IMG/VR virus record: IMGVR_UViG_3300037400_004297
Location: 1-64,000 of that record
Strand: one strand, 5' to 3'
Length of the DNA stretch: 64,000 nucleotides
From: a virus
Taxonomy: Duplodnaviria; Caudoviricetes
Part shown: positions 4,679 through 17,104 of the stretch, piece after piece
Position numbering within the stretch: position 1 is the stretch's first letter
Layout of the letters: every line of letters begins with the position of its first letter
Position numbers and translations under genes: made by a program
The notes under the pieces: model-generated
Seen by the model: only the letters and a program-made list of their open reading frames with translations
What the model was told of the DNA's origin: nothing
The model's database searches: none

Positions 4679-4711
4679 TTTGCAATTTTAACTTTTTTTA
4701 TATATCTTTGC
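4679..4711 (+). promoter_or_regulatory. Bacteroidota sigma-ABfr-type promoter
   Basis: tttg at about 4679 and TATCTTTG at 4703-4710, directly upstream of the ATG at 4715. Confidence 0.7.
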
Positions 4712-7235: not shown

Positions 7236-8387
7236 ATGGTTTTAACAGAAGATATGAAATCACTGTTCCGCACAGTGAGAACACTACTTGGTGCTCCTAT
7301 TAGAATTGTTCAATTGGAGGATGAACAGCTTTGTGACCTTCTCGATGTTGCTATAGGTGACTACTCAGAGAAGGTACAGAACTGGGTTCTTGAGACCCAG
7401 TGGCTTAACATACAGAGCAAGGGACAGATACAGTTCCAGAACGCCAATGAGCTTGCGTATGCAATGACCGTTCGTACAATGGACTGGTCTCGTGACTATT
7501 CATACTGGTTCTCACGTGAGGTTGGACTACAACAGAGAGGTAATTATGAACTAAAGAAGGACTTCTTTCAGGTTGAAAGGGGCAAGCAAGTTTATGTCAT
7601 TCCAGCAGGAAGGGAGATAAATAAGGTAATGTATGTAACTCCATCAACCACAAAGGCAGCACTCTACGGAAACCTTGGCACTCTTGATACTGGTATTGGC
7701 GGTGGATTCGGACAATACGGTAACATGGGTAACGGTATGGGTCTTACAGGATTCTATGTTGGTTCAGCATATGATACTGCACTTATGGCAGCAGACCTTA
7801 AGTATAAAAACTCACTTCTCAGGGGTGATTTAGCTTATAAGGTGACAGCAGGACCTAATGGAACACACCTTGTACACCTTATGTCAACTCCTGGCTCTCC
7901 AAATATGGTTGGCGGTGTATCTGCCGATGATACCTGGGGATGGAATAGGTATGCAAGCTGTTATGTGTGGTATACCTATTATGATGTATCTGGTTCAGAT
8001 GATGCAGCAGACCTTTGCATGCTTGAGAACAAGGATGATGTGATAATCACACCAGACCAAGTTCCATTGGATAAAATGAAGTATGAACTGATGAACAATC
8101 CTACACAACAAATTATAAGAAGGCTATTGGTTGCAGAGGCTAAGATATTGCTTGGTATTATAAGAGGTACGTATAGCGGTACTGTGAAGATACCTGATGC
8201 GGAAATGCAGATGGATTATAATATGCTTCTTGACCAAGGAAAGAGTGAAAAGGAGACAGTGCTTAATGAGTTGAAGGAGAGGCTTGAGAGGATGTTACCT
8301 TGGAATCTGATTAAGAACCAGGTGGACATGAATGATAGTCTCATAAAGGTATTGAAGAATAAGCCACTTGGATTGTTTGTGAGATAA
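7236..8387 (+). CDS. Putative neck protein (T4 gp13-like)
   Basis: LGAPIRIVQLEDEQL..L..A N-terminus and AEAKILLGIIRG...MDYNMLLDQG C-terminus, typical of large-myovirus neck proteins. Confidence 0.7.
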   Translation: MVLTEDMKSLFRTVRTLLGAPIRIVQLEDEQLCDLLDVAIGDYSEKVQNWVLETQWLNIQSKGQIQFQNANELAYAMTVRTMDWSRDYSYWFSREVGLQQRGNYELKKDFFQVERGKQVYVIPAGREINKVMYVTPSTTKAALYGNLGTLDTGIGGGFGQYGNMGNGMGLTGFYVGSAYDTALMAADLKYKNSLLRGDLAYKVTAGPNGTHLVHLMSTPGSPNMVGGVSADDTWGWNRYASCYVWYTYYDVSGSDDAADLCMLENKDDVIITPDQVPLDKMKYELMNNPTQQIIRRLLVAEAKILLGIIRGTYSGTVKIPDAEMQMDYNMLLDQGKSEKETVLNELKERLERMLPWNLIKNQVDMNDSLIKVLKNKPLGLFVR

Positions 8388-9283
8388 TGAAAGTAGATAA
8401 TAAACTTGTAGAGAGTGTTGTTAGAGAGGTAATATTGGAATATGGCGGGGTATCAGACGAAATACTGAATCTCGCAAATAAGATATTTTCTGAAATAACA
8501 TCTGATTATAATGGTTACATGTACGACTGGAGACCTGTGGATTATTACATGGGGCTTGATGGTTGTGACCTTGTGAAAAGAATGCCATTACAGTTTGATA
8601 ATAATGAATATGTTGATGAGGTAAATATACGACTTTTTGGATATTATTCAAGGAAGACAAATTTCAATGAAGCTTTGAATTATCTTAAATCAAAGGGACT
8701 TGCTGGAGTATCTTATTCTTACAGTAGAAAAATGGTTAAACTTTTTATACCTTATCCAACAGATGGCAACTTACCTGATGATGTTAAGACGTGGCTTATA
8801 TCTAGTCTAAACCACGAAATAAAACATGGGCTACAGTTTGTAAAACAGTCACATGCTTTAGGCAAGAAAGGTAGACAGTATGCATTCGACAAAAATTATG
8901 ATGCGTCTGTATCTGACACTAACCAAAGTGAATTTGGTGATGATACAGGTACTGCTGAATGGATAAAGCGTTGCTACTATACATTGTGCTATGATGAAAT
9001 AGATGCAAGGTTGCAGTCTTTATATGTGGAATATTCTAAATATGGTGATTTAAATAAGTGTGAATCGTATAAGGATGTTAGATATGCCACACAAATGTAT
9101 CAAATGCTGTTAATGACAATGATAAAGCCAGAGCTTAGTAAGAGATTTGATTATCTTGTTAGGAAGATTTTTGATAACAGATTGAATGCAAAATCTTTCC
9201 TTAAACTTTGCCAGAGAGGTGTAAACAGGTTTAATGAACACATGAGAAGGATAGTTGGAAGGGTTAATATTGAGAGAAAATAA
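8387..9283 (+). CDS. Hypothetical protein with HExxH motif (possible Zn metallopeptidase)
   Basis: LNHEIKHG plus downstream DEIDARL glutamate. Confidence 0.5.
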   Translation: MKVDNKLVESVVREVILEYGGVSDEILNLANKIFSEITSDYNGYMYDWRPVDYYMGLDGCDLVKRMPLQFDNNEYVDEVNIRLFGYYSRKTNFNEALNYLKSKGLAGVSYSYSRKMVKLFIPYPTDGNLPDDVKTWLISSLNHEIKHGLQFVKQSHALGKKGRQYAFDKNYDASVSDTNQSEFGDDTGTAEWIKRCYYTLCYDEIDARLQSLYVEYSKYGDLNKCESYKDVRYATQMYQMLLMTMIKPELSKRFDYLVRKIFDNRLNAKSFLKLCQRGVNRFNEHMRRIVGRVNIERK

Positions 9284-9349: not shown

Positions 9350-10789
9350 ATGAGTGAGAATTTAACAAATGGTAAATTTTTAGAGAATCTATATAAGCGA
9401 TTTCCAGATATTAAGTATGATTTTTCAGAAGCCGAATATATTGATAGTAAAACGCACATGAAAGTTATATGTCACGAAAAAGATTGTAATGGTATTGAGC
9501 ATGGAAGCTGGATGATAAGGCCATACAATCTGTATAGTGGATATGGATGTCCTAAATGTGCAGCCGAAAAACATAGACAGGAACGTAGAATGCCATATGA
9601 ACAGTATTGCAAGTTAGTATCAGAAAAGTATGGTGACGTATATGAAGTGGATAAAACATCTTACGAAGATAAGTTCAATAGATTAAAAATATTGTGTAAG
9701 AAGCATAATAAATATTTTGAAACGAATAGCAGGTTATTCCCAAGATTTAATTCACATAAATGTCCTGATTGTATTAAGGAAGATTTGGAGTGTAGTGGTG
9801 TAGATAGCAGTTTATCTACTGCGAATGACATCAATAGTTTTGATGATGAAGTGTGGGTTGATATACCAGGCTTTGAAGGAAAATATCAATGCAGTTCTGA
9901 AGGAAGATTTAGAAGAATAAATAGAAAGAATAGAGTTGGTAATAAAATTAGCGATTTAATTCTTAAAGTTAATTTTACAAGGAGAGCTGGTCAGATATCT
10001 CTAGACGGTAAAACCTATGTTGCTCATAGAATCATATATGAAACATTTCATAAAGTTAATCTAATAAGTGGATACACTTCTACAATAGACCATATAGATA
10101 ATAATGTTAGGAACAACAGAATTTCAAATTTGAGACTTGGTGGCACTATAAGTGAGAATATGTTAAATAACAAGCTTACTATTGCTAGACTATCAGCAAG
10201 AGGTGGGGCTGTTGGTATTTCACCTATATTTGATTTTGAAAAATTGGAAGGGGAAAAATGGGTTGATATAATAGGTTATGAAGATTCTTATATGGTTTCT
10301 AATTTTGGTAGGGTTGTAGCAAAAGATAGAACTCTTGTTGAAAAAAACACTGGTAAGAAGAGACTTAAGAAAGGACATCTAATGCGTCAAGCAATTAAAT
10401 ATGGACAATATTATACAGTTGGGCTTGTAGATGGTAATAGAATACGTAAGACACATTATACTCATAGATTGGTTTATGAAAGCTTTAATGGTAGAATAAA
10501 AGAAGGAAACCAAGTAGACCATATAGATTCCAATTCGTTAAACAATAGATTGGATAATCTTAGAGAAACAAGTCCTTTAGAAAATGTTAGAAATCCTAAT
10601 TCTTTATCTAAAAGAACTATACAAGTTAGGAAAGTGAATTTGCTTGGTGAAACATTGGCTATTTATGATTCTATTAAAGAAGCTGGCATAAAAAATAATA
10701 TTAAACCTGGATTAATTTCAAGATGGCTTAATGAAAATAATAGGCAGAAAAATAATAAGTTGAGGGGGTTTTATTTAATTAAAGTATAA
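9350..10789 (+). CDS. HNH homing endonuclease with tandem NUMOD4-HNH units and N-terminal Zn-binding repeats
   Basis: Two NUMOD4 motifs (WVDIPGFEGKY, WVDIIGYEDSY), two HNH motifs (DHIDNNVRNNRISNL, DHIDSNSLNNRLDNL), GCPKC and CPDC. Confidence 0.85.
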   Translation: MSENLTNGKFLENLYKRFPDIKYDFSEAEYIDSKTHMKVICHEKDCNGIEHGSWMIRPYNLYSGYGCPKCAAEKHRQERRMPYEQYCKLVSEKYGDVYEVDKTSYEDKFNRLKILCKKHNKYFETNSRLFPRFNSHKCPDCIKEDLECSGVDSSLSTANDINSFDDEVWVDIPGFEGKYQCSSEGRFRRINRKNRVGNKISDLILKVNFTRRAGQISLDGKTYVAHRIIYETFHKVNLISGYTSTIDHIDNNVRNNRISNLRLGGTISENMLNNKLTIARLSARGGAVGISPIFDFEKLEGEKWVDIIGYEDSYMVSNFGRVVAKDRTLVEKNTGKKRLKKGHLMRQAIKYGQYYTVGLVDGNRIRKTHYTHRLVYESFNGRIKEGNQVDHIDSNSLNNRLDNLRETSPLENVRNPNSLSKRTIQVRKVNLLGETLAIYDSIKEAGIKNNIKPGLISRWLNENNRQKNNKLRGFYLIKV

Positions 10790-10906: not shown

Positions 10907-10962
10907 TGTTAAATAATCGGGGTAATGTTTGGTTATCTCGATTTTTTTATGTATCTTTGCAC
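10907..10962 (+). repeat. 56-bp direct repeat copy A (terminator-promoter cassette) left of the IscB module
   Basis: 53/56 identical to 12729-12784; contains tttg (10928-10931) and TATCTTTG (10952-10959). Confidence 0.9.
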
Positions 10963-10963
10963 C

Positions 10964-11140
10964 AACTAATCTGGTATGATTAGCTTAAGCCCTTCGAGGG
11001 CTACGTTGAGGGAGAATATATAGGCACTTTGGAGTTGTTACCCAAGCCCCAAACCATGCGGCTAGCGAGAATGTCTTTCTAGTGAAAACCTCCAACCAAC
11101 ATTAGCGATGGGTACACAACGTCATTTATTTGACGGTTTA
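10964..11140 (+). ncRNA. IscB omegaRNA scaffold lacking a cis guide; tracrRNA-like, with 5' anti-repeat at 10964-10980
   Basis: OmegaRNA-like motifs TAGCTTAAG-[agccct-tcg-agggct]-CTACGTT, GAATATATAGGCAC, AACC..AACATTAGCGATGGGT; possible pseudoknot tacccA/tgggta; 3' hairpin cgtca-tttatt-tgacg. The first 17 nt are complementary to the array repeat. Confidence 0.85.
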
Positions 11141-11162: not shown

Positions 11163-12437
11163 ATGGTTTATGTATTAAACAAGGATGGCAAACCCATAAT
11201 GCCAACGACAAGACACGGAAAAGTTAGGAGGCTTTTGAAGGAAGGGAAAGCCCACGTGGTTTCTACCGTTCCTTTTACAATCCAGCTTGACTATATTTCT
11301 GGTGAGAACCTACAAGAAATAAATCTTGGGGTTGACACTGGTTCTAGGTACATAGGCTTGTCTGCATCTACATCTTCTAAGGAGCTTTATGCTGCGCAGG
11401 TAGAACTTCGTAGTAAAGAGATTCCAGACCTTATTCTTTCTAGGCGTGAGTCTAGAAGAACTAGACGCAACAGAAAAACTAGGTACAGAAAGCCACGTTT
11501 TGATAATAGGAAAAGACCAAATGGCTGGTTAACTCCTACATCAAGAAACAGATTTGATGAACATATGAAAGCTATTCAGCGTGTCTATAAAATTCTACCT
11601 GTTTCTAACATAACCATTGAGATTGCTCCGTTTGATATCCAGAAACTAAAGAATCCAGGGATTCAAGGTGAAGAGTACCAACATGGTGAGTTGTTTGGTT
11701 TTGAAAACGCCAGAGAATACGCTTTAATTAGGGATAGGCACGAGTGCCAGCATTGTCACGGTAAAAGTGGATGCAAAACACTTCACGTACACCATATTCA
11801 ATACAGGTCACAAGGCGGTACTGATGCAGTTGGAAATCTTATCACATTGTGTGAGGATTGCCATAATAAACTACATAATGGTGAATTTGAACTTAACTTA
11901 AAAAAGATTACTAGCTTCAAAAACCAAACATCAGTATCGACAATCGGTAAACCTGTGTTCTGGAAGGCAAAGGAACTGTATGGTAATGTTAAGACTACGT
12001 ATGGCTACATAACCAAAACTAACCGCTTAAGGGGTGGAATTGAGAAGTCCCATACTAGTGATGCATTTGTTATGGCTGGCAACTTGAATGCTGACAGGTT
12101 TGGTGGATTCTACCAGTATAAGCTTAACAGAAGACATACTAGGTCTCTACATAAGCAACTTCCAAAGAAAGGTGGCATACGAGCAGCAACCACTGCCACC
12201 CATACAATAGGTAATAGTGGCTTGCAGAAGGGAGATTTGGTTCTCTGGAATGGGATGAAGTGCTTTATTAGTGGAAGCTCACATAATAGGCTATACTTGA
12301 AAGATATTAATGGTAATCTTCTGACAAGAAAACAAAATGATAACGGTAAGATGATATCTTTTACTGTAAGAACTGCTGATGTGAAATTCCTAAGAAGGAT
12401 GCACGGGAGTCATTTGCTCCAGTTTACTCGTGAATAA
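11163..12437 (+). CDS. iscB: IscB RNA-guided endonuclease (PLMP/RRXRR, split RuvC, bridge helix, HNH)
   Basis: MVYVLNKDGKPIMP; RuvC-I LGVDTGS; RRESRRTRRNRKTRYRKPRFDNR; RuvC-II ITIEIAPFD; HNH CQHC..HVHHI..GGTD..NLITLCEDCHNKLH; RuvC-III KSHTSDA. Start placed at ATG 11163 (424 aa). Confidence 0.95.
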   Translation: MVYVLNKDGKPIMPTTRHGKVRRLLKEGKAHVVSTVPFTIQLDYISGENLQEINLGVDTGSRYIGLSASTSSKELYAAQVELRSKEIPDLILSRRESRRTRRNRKTRYRKPRFDNRKRPNGWLTPTSRNRFDEHMKAIQRVYKILPVSNITIEIAPFDIQKLKNPGIQGEEYQHGELFGFENAREYALIRDRHECQHCHGKSGCKTLHVHHIQYRSQGGTDAVGNLITLCEDCHNKLHNGEFELNLKKITSFKNQTSVSTIGKPVFWKAKELYGNVKTTYGYITKTNRLRGGIEKSHTSDAFVMAGNLNADRFGGFYQYKLNRRHTRSLHKQLPKKGGIRAATTATHTIGNSGLQKGDLVLWNGMKCFISGSSHNRLYLKDINGNLLTRKQNDNGKMISFTVRTADVKFLRRMHGSHLLQFTRE

Positions 12438-12488
12438 GAGATAAGTGGAGTTTTTAATCATTTCGTCGATTCTTTGTTCAAAATATGC

Positions 12489-12722
12489 ATTGTATCAGAT
12501 TAGTTTTTAATATTATTAGATTTCTGGAATCGGTATTTATCGTAGACTTACCCACCCTTTATATATAATGATGAGTCAGGTTCTGAATGATTAATTGTAT
12601 CAGATTAGTTTTTTATATTATTAGATTTCTGGAAAAAGAGATATATCAATAATAACGCTGCCAATTGTATCAGATTAGTTTTTTATACCAGAACACACAT
12701 ATGAAATTGTATCAGATTAGTT
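12489..12722 (+). CRISPR. Degenerate CRISPR-like mini-array, 4 repeats with core ATTGTATCAGATTAGTT
   Basis: R1 12489-12529 and R2 12594-12634 (41 bp, 1 mismatch), R3 12664-12687 (24 bp), R4 12706-12722 (17 bp). Unique intervening sequences of 64, 29 and 18 nt. Confidence 0.8.
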
Positions 12723-12728
12723 AATTTT

Positions 12729-12784
12729 TGTTAAATAATCGAGGTAATGTTTGGTTATCTCGATTTTTTTATGTAATTTTGCAC
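12729..12784 (+). repeat. 56-bp direct repeat copy B (terminator for IscB/array, promoter for the next cassette)
   Basis: aatcgaggtaa-tgtttgg-ttatctcgatt hairpin + T7 + TAATTTTG; 53/56 identical to 10907-10962. Confidence 0.9.
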
Positions 12785-13398: not shown

Positions 13399-15435
13399 AT
13401 GAAAAAGCTTTTATGGATTATGTGTGCAATGCTGGTCGGTATGTCAGCATATGCAAGTGAGACTAACGACACCATTATTAACAAGTCACTTGACGAGTTT
13501 ACGGTAACGTCGTTCTATCGTAGTTCCACCCCAATTCTGGGTAGCACTTTGAATTCACAGTCATTGATTTCTGCAAACTATGGTCAAGAGCCTTCTTGGC
13601 TGTTAGCAAACATGCCTTCCATCTTTGCATTCAGTGACAATGGTACTGATTTCGGTTATGGCTATTTCCGTATTCGTGGACTTGACCAGACTAGAATAAA
13701 TGTAACTCTTGATGGAATGCCTTGGAATGAGGCTGAGGATTTTGGCTGTTATTTCGCTAATAGCCCTGATATTTTAGCAGACGCTGGCAGTGTTGAAGTT
13801 GGACGTGGTACAAGCACCTATAACCCTGGTACTGCATCGTATGGTGGAAGTGTAAACATTAACTCTGTTGACCTCAAAAAGGACACTGAATCATATGCAA
13901 TGTTTGGTGGTGGTAGTTTTGCATCATTTAAGACATCTGTCAATATTAATACAGGTCTTATGGGTAAGTGGGCTATGCATGTACGTGCAACAATGTCAGA
14001 AACTGATGGCTATCGTGAGCATAGTTCAAATAAATCTAAGTCACTTGGCTTTAAGCTTGGTTATTTCATTAATGATAAGAGTTCAATTGACCTGCTGTCA
14101 ATCACTGGATATCACAAGAACGGACAGGGATATATTGGTGGCACAATGGAGGAGCTTGCGAAGAATCGTAAGATGAATGGCTGTAGTGAATATGAGGACG
14201 ATAATTTCTTCCAGACGGTAAATAAGCTTACCTATAATAGTTGGTTTGGTGATAAGGTATTGTTTACATCTTCATTGTATTGGAGTATGCTTCGTGGAGA
14301 GTATCGTTTTGATTTAGACAATTATCTGTTGCGAATGGAGGATTTTCCAGCGCAAACTGGCATGGTGTATAACTATGGGCTTATTCACCACAGCTATGGT
14401 GGTAATGCAGCAGCACGTTATTACATCAACGACGGCTCAATTACATTAGGTACTAACATCTATAAGTTCGAGCGTGAGCATTATCTTGATGACCGTAATG
14501 TTGATAAGGCTAAGAATATCACACCTGCTGACTACTATGACAATCGTGGACATAAGATGAGCTATGAGGCATTCATTAATGCGAAGAAGTCATTTGGCAA
14601 TTTCACACTGTCTGCTAATGTTCAATATCGTGGTGTTAAGTTCTGGTATGTTGACCTTATGAATCCATTAGTTAACTTTGATGAGAATACAACTTGGAAC
14701 TTCATTAATTTTGGTGCTGATGCAAGTTATAAGATTGGAAGTCATAATGAGTTATATCTGAAGTACGCACGTGCTCACCGTGAACCGACACGTACAGATA
14801 TGTTTGGTGGAAATGAATGGTATGTTGGTTCACTTACAACAACAGATGCTGAGGTTTCAAATGATATTGAATTTGGTTGGAATATTGCTGCAAAGAAGAT
14901 TAATGCTAATGTAAACCTGTTTGGAATGTTCTTTGAGAACGAGCGTTCACTTACTGGTACACTTGGTTTAAACGGTCTTCCTGAGCATGAGAAGGCTGAT
15001 AACAGTCATCGTATGGGTATTGAGTTATTCGTTGATTATGAGCCTTTTAGTAAGTTCCATATCGTTAATAACTCGTCTTTCTCTAATAATAAGGTAAAGA
15101 CTGAGACCTATGGAACTAAAAGTCATGTATTAACTCCTAATTGTACGTTCAACCAGGCGTTTGAGTGGCGTGATAACAAGTGGAGTGCTGGGGTAGAGTG
15201 GAAATATCGTAGTCATATGTACATTGATATGGCAAATGAGTTCCGTGTCCCTGACCTGTGGCAGCTTAATCTCTATGGTAGTGTTACCCTTGGCAATTTC
15301 ATCGTCAGTGGGCATGTTAATAACATTACCAATCGTGACAATATGCAGACAGGTGTGCTAACCAATACCAACAAGGCACGTTTCATGCCTGATGCGCCAA
15401 CTAACGTGTTTGCTTCGGTGAAGTACATGTTCTAA
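13399..15435 (+). CDS. TonB-dependent outer-membrane receptor (Bacteroidota vitamin-uptake type)
   Basis: Signal peptide; LDEFTVTS TonB-box-like; plug motifs FRIRGLDQTRINVTLDGMP and GRGTS..G..GGSVNI; C-terminal NNITNR...PTNVFASVKYMF ending in aromatic F. Confidence 0.9.
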   Translation: MKKLLWIMCAMLVGMSAYASETNDTIINKSLDEFTVTSFYRSSTPILGSTLNSQSLISANYGQEPSWLLANMPSIFAFSDNGTDFGYGYFRIRGLDQTRINVTLDGMPWNEAEDFGCYFANSPDILADAGSVEVGRGTSTYNPGTASYGGSVNINSVDLKKDTESYAMFGGGSFASFKTSVNINTGLMGKWAMHVRATMSETDGYREHSSNKSKSLGFKLGYFINDKSSIDLLSITGYHKNGQGYIGGTMEELAKNRKMNGCSEYEDDNFFQTVNKLTYNSWFGDKVLFTSSLYWSMLRGEYRFDLDNYLLRMEDFPAQTGMVYNYGLIHHSYGGNAAARYYINDGSITLGTNIYKFEREHYLDDRNVDKAKNITPADYYDNRGHKMSYEAFINAKKSFGNFTLSANVQYRGVKFWYVDLMNPLVNFDENTTWNFINFGADASYKIGSHNELYLKYARAHREPTRTDMFGGNEWYVGSLTTTDAEVSNDIEFGWNIAAKKINANVNLFGMFFENERSLTGTLGLNGLPEHEKADNSHRMGIELFVDYEPFSKFHIVNNSSFSNNKVKTETYGTKSHVLTPNCTFNQAFEWRDNKWSAGVEWKYRSHMYIDMANEFRVPDLWQLNLYGSVTLGNFIVSGHVNNITNRDNMQTGVLTNTNKARFMPDAPTNVFASVKYMF

Positions 15436-15454
15436 TTGGTTAATAATAGTTAAA

Positions 15455-15503
15455 AAATGAGGTAATCGTTTGGTTATCTCATTTTTTTTATGTAAATTTG
15501 CAG
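15455..15503 (+). promoter_or_regulatory. Terminator-promoter cassette
   Basis: aatgaggtaa-tcgtttgg-ttatctcatt hairpin, T-tract, TAAATTTG. Confidence 0.75.
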
Positions 15504-15524
15504 GTGAAATAAAATTAATTAATT

Positions 15525-16019
15525 ATGTTAGTTTGGGCTTTTAATAAAAATAATAAATCATTTAAATTGTGCGGAACATATGAGACATTGTTTTGGACAG
15601 ATAGAATGGGGTGCAAAGAAAGTAGTGTTTATATAAATGAATGCGACTACGAACTACCTAAAGATGTAGTAGATGCTTATTTTTCTGATTTGCTTTTTAA
15701 CCCCTTTACTGAATACAAATTTATTGTGAATAAGGAGAAATATGAGAAATATAATAGTTTCGGAGATTTTCCAACCACATACTTGGGTACTGTCTGTATT
15801 GTAGATGATAACAACAAAGTACTAAATGATAGACTTTATTCCCAATCAAATAATCCAAAAATAAGCATTTTAGAAAAATTTTTCGAATGTATTGGATATA
15901 AAGTTGAAATTTATAGACTTAATTACAATATGGAAAAAGAAATGAAAGAAAAAGGGTACGAACCTGTGTACTATTATGGAAGTGGTAGAGGTTGTGCATT
16001 ATTTGTTAAAAAGGTATGA
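15525..16019 (+). CDS. Hypothetical protein
   Basis: 164-aa ORF after the promoter cassette. Confidence 0.55.
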   Translation: MLVWAFNKNNKSFKLCGTYETLFWTDRMGCKESSVYINECDYELPKDVVDAYFSDLLFNPFTEYKFIVNKEKYEKYNSFGDFPTTYLGTVCIVDDNNKVLNDRLYSQSNNPKISILEKFFECIGYKVEIYRLNYNMEKEMKEKGYEPVYYYGSGRGCALFVKKV

Positions 16020-17104
16020 AAATAGGACTTTGTTTTGGTGGATATTGTCCAATGCATCGTGGGCATTTGGATGGCATTATGAGAGCCAAGAAGGAGAATG
16101 ACTTGGTTTTTGTATTTGTGTGTGGCTATGACAATGAGCCTCGTGCTGGAAACATTAACCTCACACTCAAAGAACGTGCTGCAATTGTTCGTAAAATATT
16201 CCGCAATGATGAGATTATCAAGGTTGAGGTGATTAACGATACTGAACTTGGCATTGATGAGAGCATGAGTGAAAACAACTGGGTTGTATGGCAAACTGCT
16301 GTGTCTAAGATATTAGACAAGCACGATGCAATGCATTATGGTGATAAAATTACCTGGTATGTTGCCGAGCCTATGTACAAGGAAATGCTGGAGAAACATA
16401 ATATGTTCAAGGCTGATGTAACTCTCATTGATAAGGTAGTGCCAGTGAGTGGAACTGCAATACGTGAAAACCCATTGAAATACTGGAAGTACATTGTCAG
16501 GGAATATCGTAATAACCTGTGCAAGAACATTCTCATTACTGGAACAGCTTCTGAGGGTAAGACAACGCTAGTACGTGACATATCAACGTATTTTGGCATC
16601 AACCATTCTGAGGAATATGGTCGTGATGACCTGCTTGCCAAGTGTAAGAGTGATACAGACCTTACTGCTGATGATTTCGTTGACTTCCTGATTGGTCAGA
16701 GTCTGGATATGCGCAAGCGTATTGCCAATAATGACAATGGCGTGTTTATTTCAGATACTGACAATTTGGTTACGCTAATGTATGCATTGGCATATACTGA
16801 AGACCCAAATGTACCAATCACAAAGGAGGAATATGATAATAAGGTACTTCCAGTAGCAAAGGCTCTTGAGGGTCGTGTAAAGTGGGACAAGATATATTTG
16901 TTACCACCAATGAATAAGTTCGTTGATGACGGTAGCAGGTATATGAAACAGGCTTCCATTGATGAAAGGGTTGCCAATTTCTCAAAACTATCAGCGTTAT
17001 TAAAGGATTTTGGATTGTATGACAAGGTAGAAATACTTTCTGGTGATTTCAAATCCAATTTTGAAAAAGTAAAAGACTATATCAACGGTTTATATAATGA
17101 GTAA
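16016..17104 (+). CDS. nadR: NadR-like bifunctional NMN adenylyltransferase / ribosylnicotinamide kinase
   Basis: FGGYCPMHRGH (HxGH), VSGTAIR, P-loop GTASEGKTT, EEYGR, ISDTD, FVDDGSR. Confidence 0.88.
   Translation: MKIGLCFGGYCPMHRGHLDGIMRAKKENDLVFVFVCGYDNEPRAGNINLTLKERAAIVRKIFRNDEIIKVEVINDTELGIDESMSENNWVVWQTAVSKILDKHDAMHYGDKITWYVAEPMYKEMLEKHNMFKADVTLIDKVVPVSGTAIRENPLKYWKYIVREYRNNLCKNILITGTASEGKTTLVRDISTYFGINHSEEYGRDDLLAKCKSDTDLTADDFVDFLIGQSLDMRKRIANNDNGVFISDTDNLVTLMYALAYTEDPNVPITKEEYDNKVLPVAKALEGRVKWDKIYLLPPMNKFVDDGSRYMKQASIDERVANFSKLSALLKDFGLYDKVEILSGDFKSNFEKVKDYINGLYNE

Follow-up and report, generated by a model that had tools for sequence, protein, structure and literature searches.

A phage IscB whose omegaRNA is probably split into an anti-repeat-led scaffold and separate guide units behind the gene

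The DNA analysed here, a 64,000-nt stretch of the virus record IMGVR_UViG_3300037400_004297 (hereafter the window), carries in front of an iscB gene an omegaRNA that appears to begin at its anti-repeat, which raises the question of where the nuclease would obtain its guide. The answer that we favour, and consider probable, is that this is a phage-domesticated IscB that has a split omegaRNA and, like Cas9, receives its guide on a second RNA segment. The 424-residue protein has the build of an IscB, with the PLMP, RuvC-I and bridge-helix region (Pfam RRXRR, 2e-62 over residues 2-175), an inserted HNH domain (1.4e-10) and the catalytic residues. The IscB chain of PDB entry 11hr matches it at E 8.5e-57 with the GVDTG, E, HH...N and H..D motifs aligned, so that the RuvC D/E/H-D and the HNH residues are all in register, and the same search recovers OgeuIscB (7UTN, 7XHT) at E 5.4e-56. 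The gene appears from these alignments to be intact and to encode a nuclease with its catalytic motifs; at 424 aa the protein is IscB-like and has no REC lobe of the type II Cas9 kind. Each of the genomes G000, G001 and G002 (complete, 412 kb) gives a single RRXRR match, that is, one iscB per genome, and the Y1 transposase TnpA (PF01797) has 0 matches in the three; with the same gene neighbours recurring in loci L101-L106, this is not the context of an IS200/IS605 transposon. The nearest bacterial relatives (L121-L165, on genome contigs, 42-51% identity) are multi-copy in Firmicutes, their hosts being Tissierella, Youngiibacter and Erysipelotrichaceae RD49 (more than 15 copies); such multiplication is typical transposon behaviour, as opposed to the single fixed phage copy.

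Upstream of the gene, Infernal aligns 10969-11120 to the Rfam family HEARO (RF02033) at 52.5 bits (E 2.9e-9). The sequence-only reading had predicted just such a match, lacking the 5' strand of the first stem, and in the alignment P1 is indeed collapsed from 46 to 6 nt inside the stem (AUC-6 nt-GAU, 3 bp), and only 5 nt are left of the 27 that form the distal part of another stem. These two reductions account for the low score: the gathering score of HEARO is 83 bits, at a level that includes a P1 hairpin with its 5' guide, and no match of 83 bits or more exists anywhere in the window. The only two relatives scored, L003 and L004, which have a full cis P1, reach 125.6 and 140.2 bits. Of P1, the window scaffold retains the 3' strand and the junction, with TAGCTTAAG at 10981-10989 directly 3' of the anti-repeat; at the other end it closes with a terminal hairpin (11120-11135) that shows two compensatory pairs in L002. 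As judged from this alignment, the scaffold RNA is homologous to IscB omegaRNA but truncated. A gapped duplex scan near the scaffold found no plausible 5' strand in cis, in agreement with the earlier claim that this strand is absent. The best site upstream (-17.9 kcal/mol) lies 1.35 kb away inside an HNH gene, and was rejected as it is not conserved and draws on bases ahead of the predicted start. The free 5' end of the scaffold (10966-10983) can fold into a 6-bp hairpin, CUAAUC-UGGUAU-GAUUAG, which takes in the junction and the final pairs of P1 and carries no guide. This potential is kept in four of the five lineages described below, and its ACUAA part in all five; the hairpin may be a placeholder or may protect the 5' end.

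What sets the 5' end of this RNA? The -7 box, which is TATCTTTGCA without variation in the five lineages, and the anti-repeat behind it lie where the sequence-only reading had put them, letter for letter (Table 1), and a -33-like TTTG (10928-10931) sits inside the loop of the terminator that precedes them. Cassettes of hairpin, T-run and TAnnTTTG precede genes elsewhere in the same genome, and the terminator cassette is also found at 9282, 12737, 15455, 48751 and 55584. At the cassette at 4693 an ATG (4715) stands 5 nt after the box G; the gene encodes a 5'-3' exonuclease whose Pfam domain begins at residue 24, and on this account we take the ATG as the start codon. A second ATG, a candidate start codon, stands 5 nt after the box at about 57023 (cassette 57002). 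With so short a distance to the ATG, transcription there should begin no more than 5 nt past the box, and this points to leaderless mRNAs at both cassettes. For the scaffold we infer a start at about 10964, the base five after the box G being A10964, the first paired one. All five lineages have an A at position +5 (CACCA, CGCCA, CACTA, CAACA and CATCA), and the predicted duplex extends to this base in each. The anti-repeat-side RNA would begin about 5 nt past the box, which leaves no space between promoter and anti-repeat for a guide of about 16 nt together with its partner strand of 8-17 nt. Read-through from upstream would need to pass the terminator, yet would still meet no partner strand. 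T-runs followed by TAnnTTTG, often behind a hairpin, occur in the window at 4693, 9309, 10942, 12764, 15482, 48781, 55613 and 57002, and at 70821 of the genome.

A partner strand is present on the far side of iscB. Downstream of the gene, four direct repeats with the core ATTGTATCAGATTAGTT start at 12489, 12594, 12664 and 12706; they are 41, 41, 24 and 17 nt long and spaced 105, 70 and 42 nt from start to start. Their common 17-nt core pairs with the anti-repeat at every position in all four repeats (14 Watson-Crick pairs and 3 G-U), with a duplex energy of -18.3 kcal/mol (shuffled repeats give -4.1 +/- 1.7), and no other site between 8001 and 15000 pairs with the anti-repeat at 14 or more of 16 positions. 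The three mismatches at the DNA level are T:G or G:T, which become G-U pairs in + strand RNA only, as had been proposed; with both RNAs taken from the - strand the same duplex drops to -13.1 kcal/mol. Taking the 16 nt in front of each core as a candidate guide gives four units (Table 1), all of which land on the anti-repeat in co-folding, with a net gain of 11-19 kcal/mol. The array differs from the regular spacing and constant length of type II CRISPR in that its spacing is irregular (36-152 nt in relatives), and the shortest start-to-start spacings (36-42 nt) leave just ~18-25 nt ahead of the next core, which fits short guides. Promoter, anti-repeat, scaffold, iscB, the four repeats and a terminator form one 1.9-kb unit, and the closing element (12737-12765) is identical to the one upstream of the promoter (10915-10950). 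A run of 4-9 T follows every core but the last of each array (12505-12512 and 12610-12618 in the window, with equivalents in L001, L101 and L103), and may mark the end of the mature unit RNA.

Table 1. Features of the IscB locus, in window coordinates
Feature	Position	Strand	Basis and remarks
Intrinsic terminator, 12-bp hairpin and T-run	10915-10950 (terminator scan 10915-10943)	+	Terminator scan; ends upstream unit
-7 box TATCTTTG, Bacteroidota-type	10952-10959	+	Sequence; invariant in 5 lineages; predicted start ~10964
Anti-repeat AACTAATCTGGTATGAT	10964-10980	+	3' strand of stem P1, 5' end of scaffold; 17/17 pairs with repeats
omegaRNA scaffold	10981-11135	+	Pseudoknot strand, nexus, stems; HEARO RF02033 match
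iscB	11163-12437	+	424 aa; Pfam RRXRR and HNH; catalytic motifs present
Unit 1	12473-12529	+	Candidate 16-nt guide 12473-12488; core 12489-12505; tail to 12529
Unit 2	12578-12634	+	Candidate guide 12578-12593; core 12594-12610; tail to 12634
Unit 3	12648-12687	+	Candidate guide 12648-12663; core 12664-12680; truncated tail
Unit 4	12690-12722	+	Candidate guide 12690-12705; core 12706-12722 only, no tail
Terminator hairpin and T-run	12737-12772 (terminator scan 12737-12765)	+	Terminator scan; closes unit

The arrangement belongs to one small group of proteins. Among 5.8 billion proteins searched, a tight clade stands out with five clusters at 100, 90, 82, 82 and 79% identity, the next relative being at 56%, and scanning collections of viruses, metagenomes and genomes with the protein as guide supplied about 150 loci, with DNA for five lineages of the clade (the window; L001/L021/L022; L002; L101/L102; L103-L108). 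In all relatives examined at or below 56% IscB identity (~40 distinct loci, upstream folds), P1 is folded in cis in the canonical layout of guide, GUCAAUAA..., inner hairpins and ...UUAUUGAC/UAGCC. The account of the canonical junction given in the sequence-only reading proved right: ...UUAUUGAC/UAGCCUAAG, with its 5' partner GUCAAUAA upstream, occurs in every such relative, and the window has the 3' strand and junction only. Since all of these relatives are canonical, it is this one clade that has secondarily lost the guide and the 5' strand in cis. A search for extra repeat copies at the canonical relatives gave no array-like cluster, the 12-nt search window being too long for their 8-bp basal stem.

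The five lineages have a common layout, and from GATTAGC onward their scaffolds are 97-99% identical (IscB 79-100%); the sole variable stretch of the RNA gene in the five-lineage alignment is the anti-repeat, 13-17 nt between box and scaffold, and it varies in step with the lineage's own repeats. The anti-repeat AACUAAUCUGGUAUGAU goes with the repeat AUUGUAUCAGAUUAGUU in the window (4 copies), AAACUAAUAUGAUACGAU with AUUGUAUCAyUAUUAGUUU in L001 (one bulged base, 7 copies), GACUAAUUUAGUACGAU with AUUGUACUrrAUUAGUU in L002 (3 copies), AAACUAAACAACAUGAU with AUUGUGUUGwUUAGUUU in L101 (9 copies) and AAACUAAUCACAUGAU with AUUGUGUGAUUAGUUU in L103 (10 copies). Cognate duplexes reach -18.3 to -21.3 kcal/mol as against mostly -5 to -17 for non-cognate ones, the exception being the L002 repeats on the window anti-repeat (-18.6 kcal/mol). 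Where repeats of one array differ, the change affects the bulged base in L001 and keeps the pair as G-U in L002, and one variant in L101 is an A-A mismatch, present in 5 of its 9 repeats. The + strand duplex is the more stable one in all five lineages, which confirms that the G-U pairs fix the orientation of the array, and the co-variation of repeat and anti-repeat shows, as the earlier reading had suggested, selection on RNA pairing and not a simple inverted repeat in DNA.

The same data bear on two further explanations. The arms flank a gene of a transposon family and could in principle act as DNA, as sites for recombination or as transposon ends; we give this scarcely any likelihood, as mismatches are tolerated only as + strand G-U in five lineages, one arm faces many, there is no Y1 transposase and iscB is present in one copy per genome. 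The second explanation is decay: the omegaRNA would have lost its guide end, and the repeats, which erode from 41 and 41 to 24 and 17 nt, are irregularly spaced and have no adaptation genes with them (Cas1, PF01867, the only adaptation gene searched, has 0 matches in G000, G001 and G002), would be leftovers of no present function. A relic of this kind seems to us quite improbable, given a scaffold that is 97-99% conserved, an intact iscB, and perfect co-variation in five lineages whose arrays have no spacer in common. Arrays are identical within a lineage and between lineages have only repeat-level matches of up to 36 nt; arrays therefore change their content more quickly than the protein changes its sequence. 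In at least one unit, unit 8 of L101, the guide position holds repeat tail only, which, like the irregular spacing, counts against the guide reading.

How would such a system work? We propose that the scaffold RNA, transcribed from the host-type promoter, would begin at about 10964 with the 3' strand of P1 (the anti-repeat) and so carry neither a guide nor the P1 5' strand. Both would come from the units downstream of iscB, in each of which a guide of about 16 nt precedes the 17-nt repeat core. Pairing of core and anti-repeat would rebuild P1 and put the guide at its canonical omegaRNA position, and IscB would then cut guide-matching DNA beside a target-adjacent motif. In structure, P1 corresponds to the repeat:anti-repeat duplex of Cas9 (PMC12339737), and IscB functions with 16-nt guides (PMC12660989). 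It is the anatomy of the locus, together with the co-variation, that argues for a guide function of the units.

Whether two RNA molecules are involved is a separate matter. Scaffold, iscB mRNA and array could form one long transcript in which P1 arises by long-range pairing within the same molecule, a rearranged cis omegaRNA instead of a two-RNA system. This is in keeping with terminators found only ahead of the promoter and past the array (the scan shows none on the + strand between 10915-10943 and 12737-12765), and with arrays that hold no conserved internal -7 box, TAnnTTTG occurring in just 3 of the 7 L001 repeats. However, each locus has one anti-repeat for 3-10 repeats, so that most units could pair only with the scaffold of another molecule, and we consider the single-molecule arrangement rather unlikely, though it keeps an appreciable share of the probability. 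It differs from guide delivery by a second RNA in RNA biogenesis only. Of the earlier claim that there is no cis guide, the essential part holds, there being, with the predicted start, neither room for one nor a partner strand nearby; to speak of pairing in trans would go further than the data, as scaffold, iscB and array may be one primary transcript.

Searches for targets found no protospacer for any of 33 guides. The arrays match GenBank phages at E 0.2 at best, the guides have no target in the window's own 76.6-kb record or in any of the loci, and 34 guides, allowed up to 3 mismatches, gave 49 matches in G000, G001 and the 412-kb G002, compared with 24-48 for shuffled guides. Exact 18-20-mers of four guides gave one match in IMG/VR, an 18-mer in a contig of 52% GC with lambda-type O and P replication genes, which we take as chance. 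Three arrays, each compared with 401 Prevotellaceae genomes, gave mostly AT-rich or repeat-tail matches and no target; one 20-nt match spans the repeat tail and the start of a spacer and lies inside a conserved gene, and matches near contig ends, checked as possible host CRISPR arrays, are not arrays. Spacer 3 with the adjoining tail (12635-12663) matches Prevotellaceae DNA (L171-L174) at 79-80% over 44-53 nt; the match was read in L171 (G061) only, where it lies on the antisense strand of a coding region whose translation, by eye, resembles the part of RecJ with the DHH motif. With an exact core of only 16 nt, the match is at chance level and not significant.

The absence of targets, and the fact that both pairing partners flank the ORF within one unit, would also suit a different function, in which pairing of the 5' end with the 3' repeats regulates the iscB mRNA (its stability, circularisation or translation) instead of delivering guides. 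We regard such regulation as improbable: the pairing falls exactly at the canonical P1 position and ends at the same GAU/UAGC junction, the arrays are hypervariable between lineages and yet their repeats track the anti-repeat, and a regulatory site has no need of 3-10 copies with differing upstream sequences.

How does a split omegaRNA of this kind compare with known systems? A CRISPR-associated IscB was reportedly described by Altae-Tran et al. in 2021, in Science 374:57. By its combination of IscB, repeat array and an anti-repeat on an omegaRNA-like scaffold, the window system falls into this class. DelIscB, a CRISPR-associated IscB that has been engineered, has array and anti-repeat together upstream of the ORF in one ncRNA (PMC12660989; PMC10734217). 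The two have in common the PLMP-RuvC-HNH build, a HEARO-type scaffold with anti-repeat, and repeats with spacers as the guide source. In contrast to DelIscB, whose array lies upstream in the same ncRNA as the anti-repeat (PMC12660989), the array of the window lies behind the ORF, 1.5 kb away, the predicted promoter fires at the anti-repeat, the spacing is irregular (42-105 nt, and 36-152 nt in relatives), only the 17-nt core is needed and kept, the scaffold is shortened and the carrier is a jumbo phage. An IscB with anti-repeat and array is therefore already published; the layout of the window, with a promoter at the anti-repeat and the array behind the ORF, is new.

With the canonical IscB-omegaRNA of IS200/IS605 elements (OgeuIscB, 7UTN and 7XHT) the window has in common a homologous protein (E about 1e-56) and a scaffold that is homologous from the P1 3' strand on, including the GAU/UAGC junction, but it lacks a guide in cis, the 5' strand of P1 and the distal portion of one stem, and the phage gene is single-copy, keeps a fixed synteny and has no TnpA with it. 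The likeness to the crRNA:tracrRNA of type II Cas9, including the compact Cas9d (PMC12339737), lies in the two-part guide logic, a repeat:anti-repeat duplex corresponding to P1, a tracr-like RNA with its own promoter and an array on the same strand. The differences from type II are, besides the missing REC lobe, the lack of cas1, cas2 or csn2 (Cas1 alone having been searched), the irregular array, a pairing core of 17 nt and a scaffold that is still omegaRNA-sized (about 157-172 nt). A parallel is offered by TranC, summarised in PMC13565253 as TnpB-to-Cas12 intermediates with a split omegaRNA; there too a one-piece transposon guide RNA is split into tracr-like and crRNA-like parts, but in the TnpB/Cas12 nuclease lineage and not in IscB/Cas9.

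The carrier is a large rumen phage, and a jumbo phage at that: the sister record G002 has 412,514 bp and is rated complete, while the window's own record (76.6 kb) is rated 34% complete. We put forward tentatively, as a possibility with less than even chances, that jumbo phages of rumen Bacteroidota have made a transposon IscB their own, as a two-RNA nuclease resembling Cas9, with an array renewed quickly without Cas1-Cas2, and so have taken an independent route from omegaRNA to tracrRNA plus crRNA. The quick renewal is suggested by the lack of any spacer common to lineages with 79-90% identical IscB. The locus would represent a natural, strongly co-varying case in the IscB/Cas9 lineage of a single omegaRNA becoming a tracr-like RNA and crRNA-like units, in a phage and without adaptation genes, and it makes testable how the splitting of P1 arose and how guides are swapped without Cas1-Cas2. 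As a candidate tool it is very compact: the nuclease has 424 aa, the scaffold ~157-172 nt, and the guide RNAs would be short and separate. The phage might use the system to compete with other phages, to act on its host or for homing.

A minor observation concerns the origin of the split. At L002:2640-2700, in the 412-kb G002, there is an extra repeat unit, ATTGTACTAATATTAGTT, which pairs with the anti-repeat of that lineage at -17.6 kcal/mol with one bulge; it lies upstream of the terminator-promoter cassette, directly after the stop codon of the upstream gene, and TGTAGCGTTAATA is locally duplicated there. The unit could be what is left of the 5' strand that once lay in cis, the cassette then occupying the former P1 loop, and it hints that the split arose when a terminator-promoter cassette took over that loop.

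In L101-L106 the cassette lies, as it does in the window, between a gp13-like 383-aa gene and the gene of a 678-aa Plug-domain protein. The gp13-like gene directly adjoins the cassette on its 5' side in these loci, while in the window a 298-aa gene with no assigned function (8387-9283) and a NUMOD4/HNH_3 homing-endonuclease gene (9350-10789) lie between the two; from these extra genes it appears that the site collects mobile nuclease genes. Just downstream, 13399-17104 encodes the 678-aa Plug-domain outer-membrane receptor and a nicotinamide-nucleotide adenylyltransferase (PHROG 3462, 1e-62), the latter consistent with the NAD+ genes reported in gut jumbo phages (PMC11662467).
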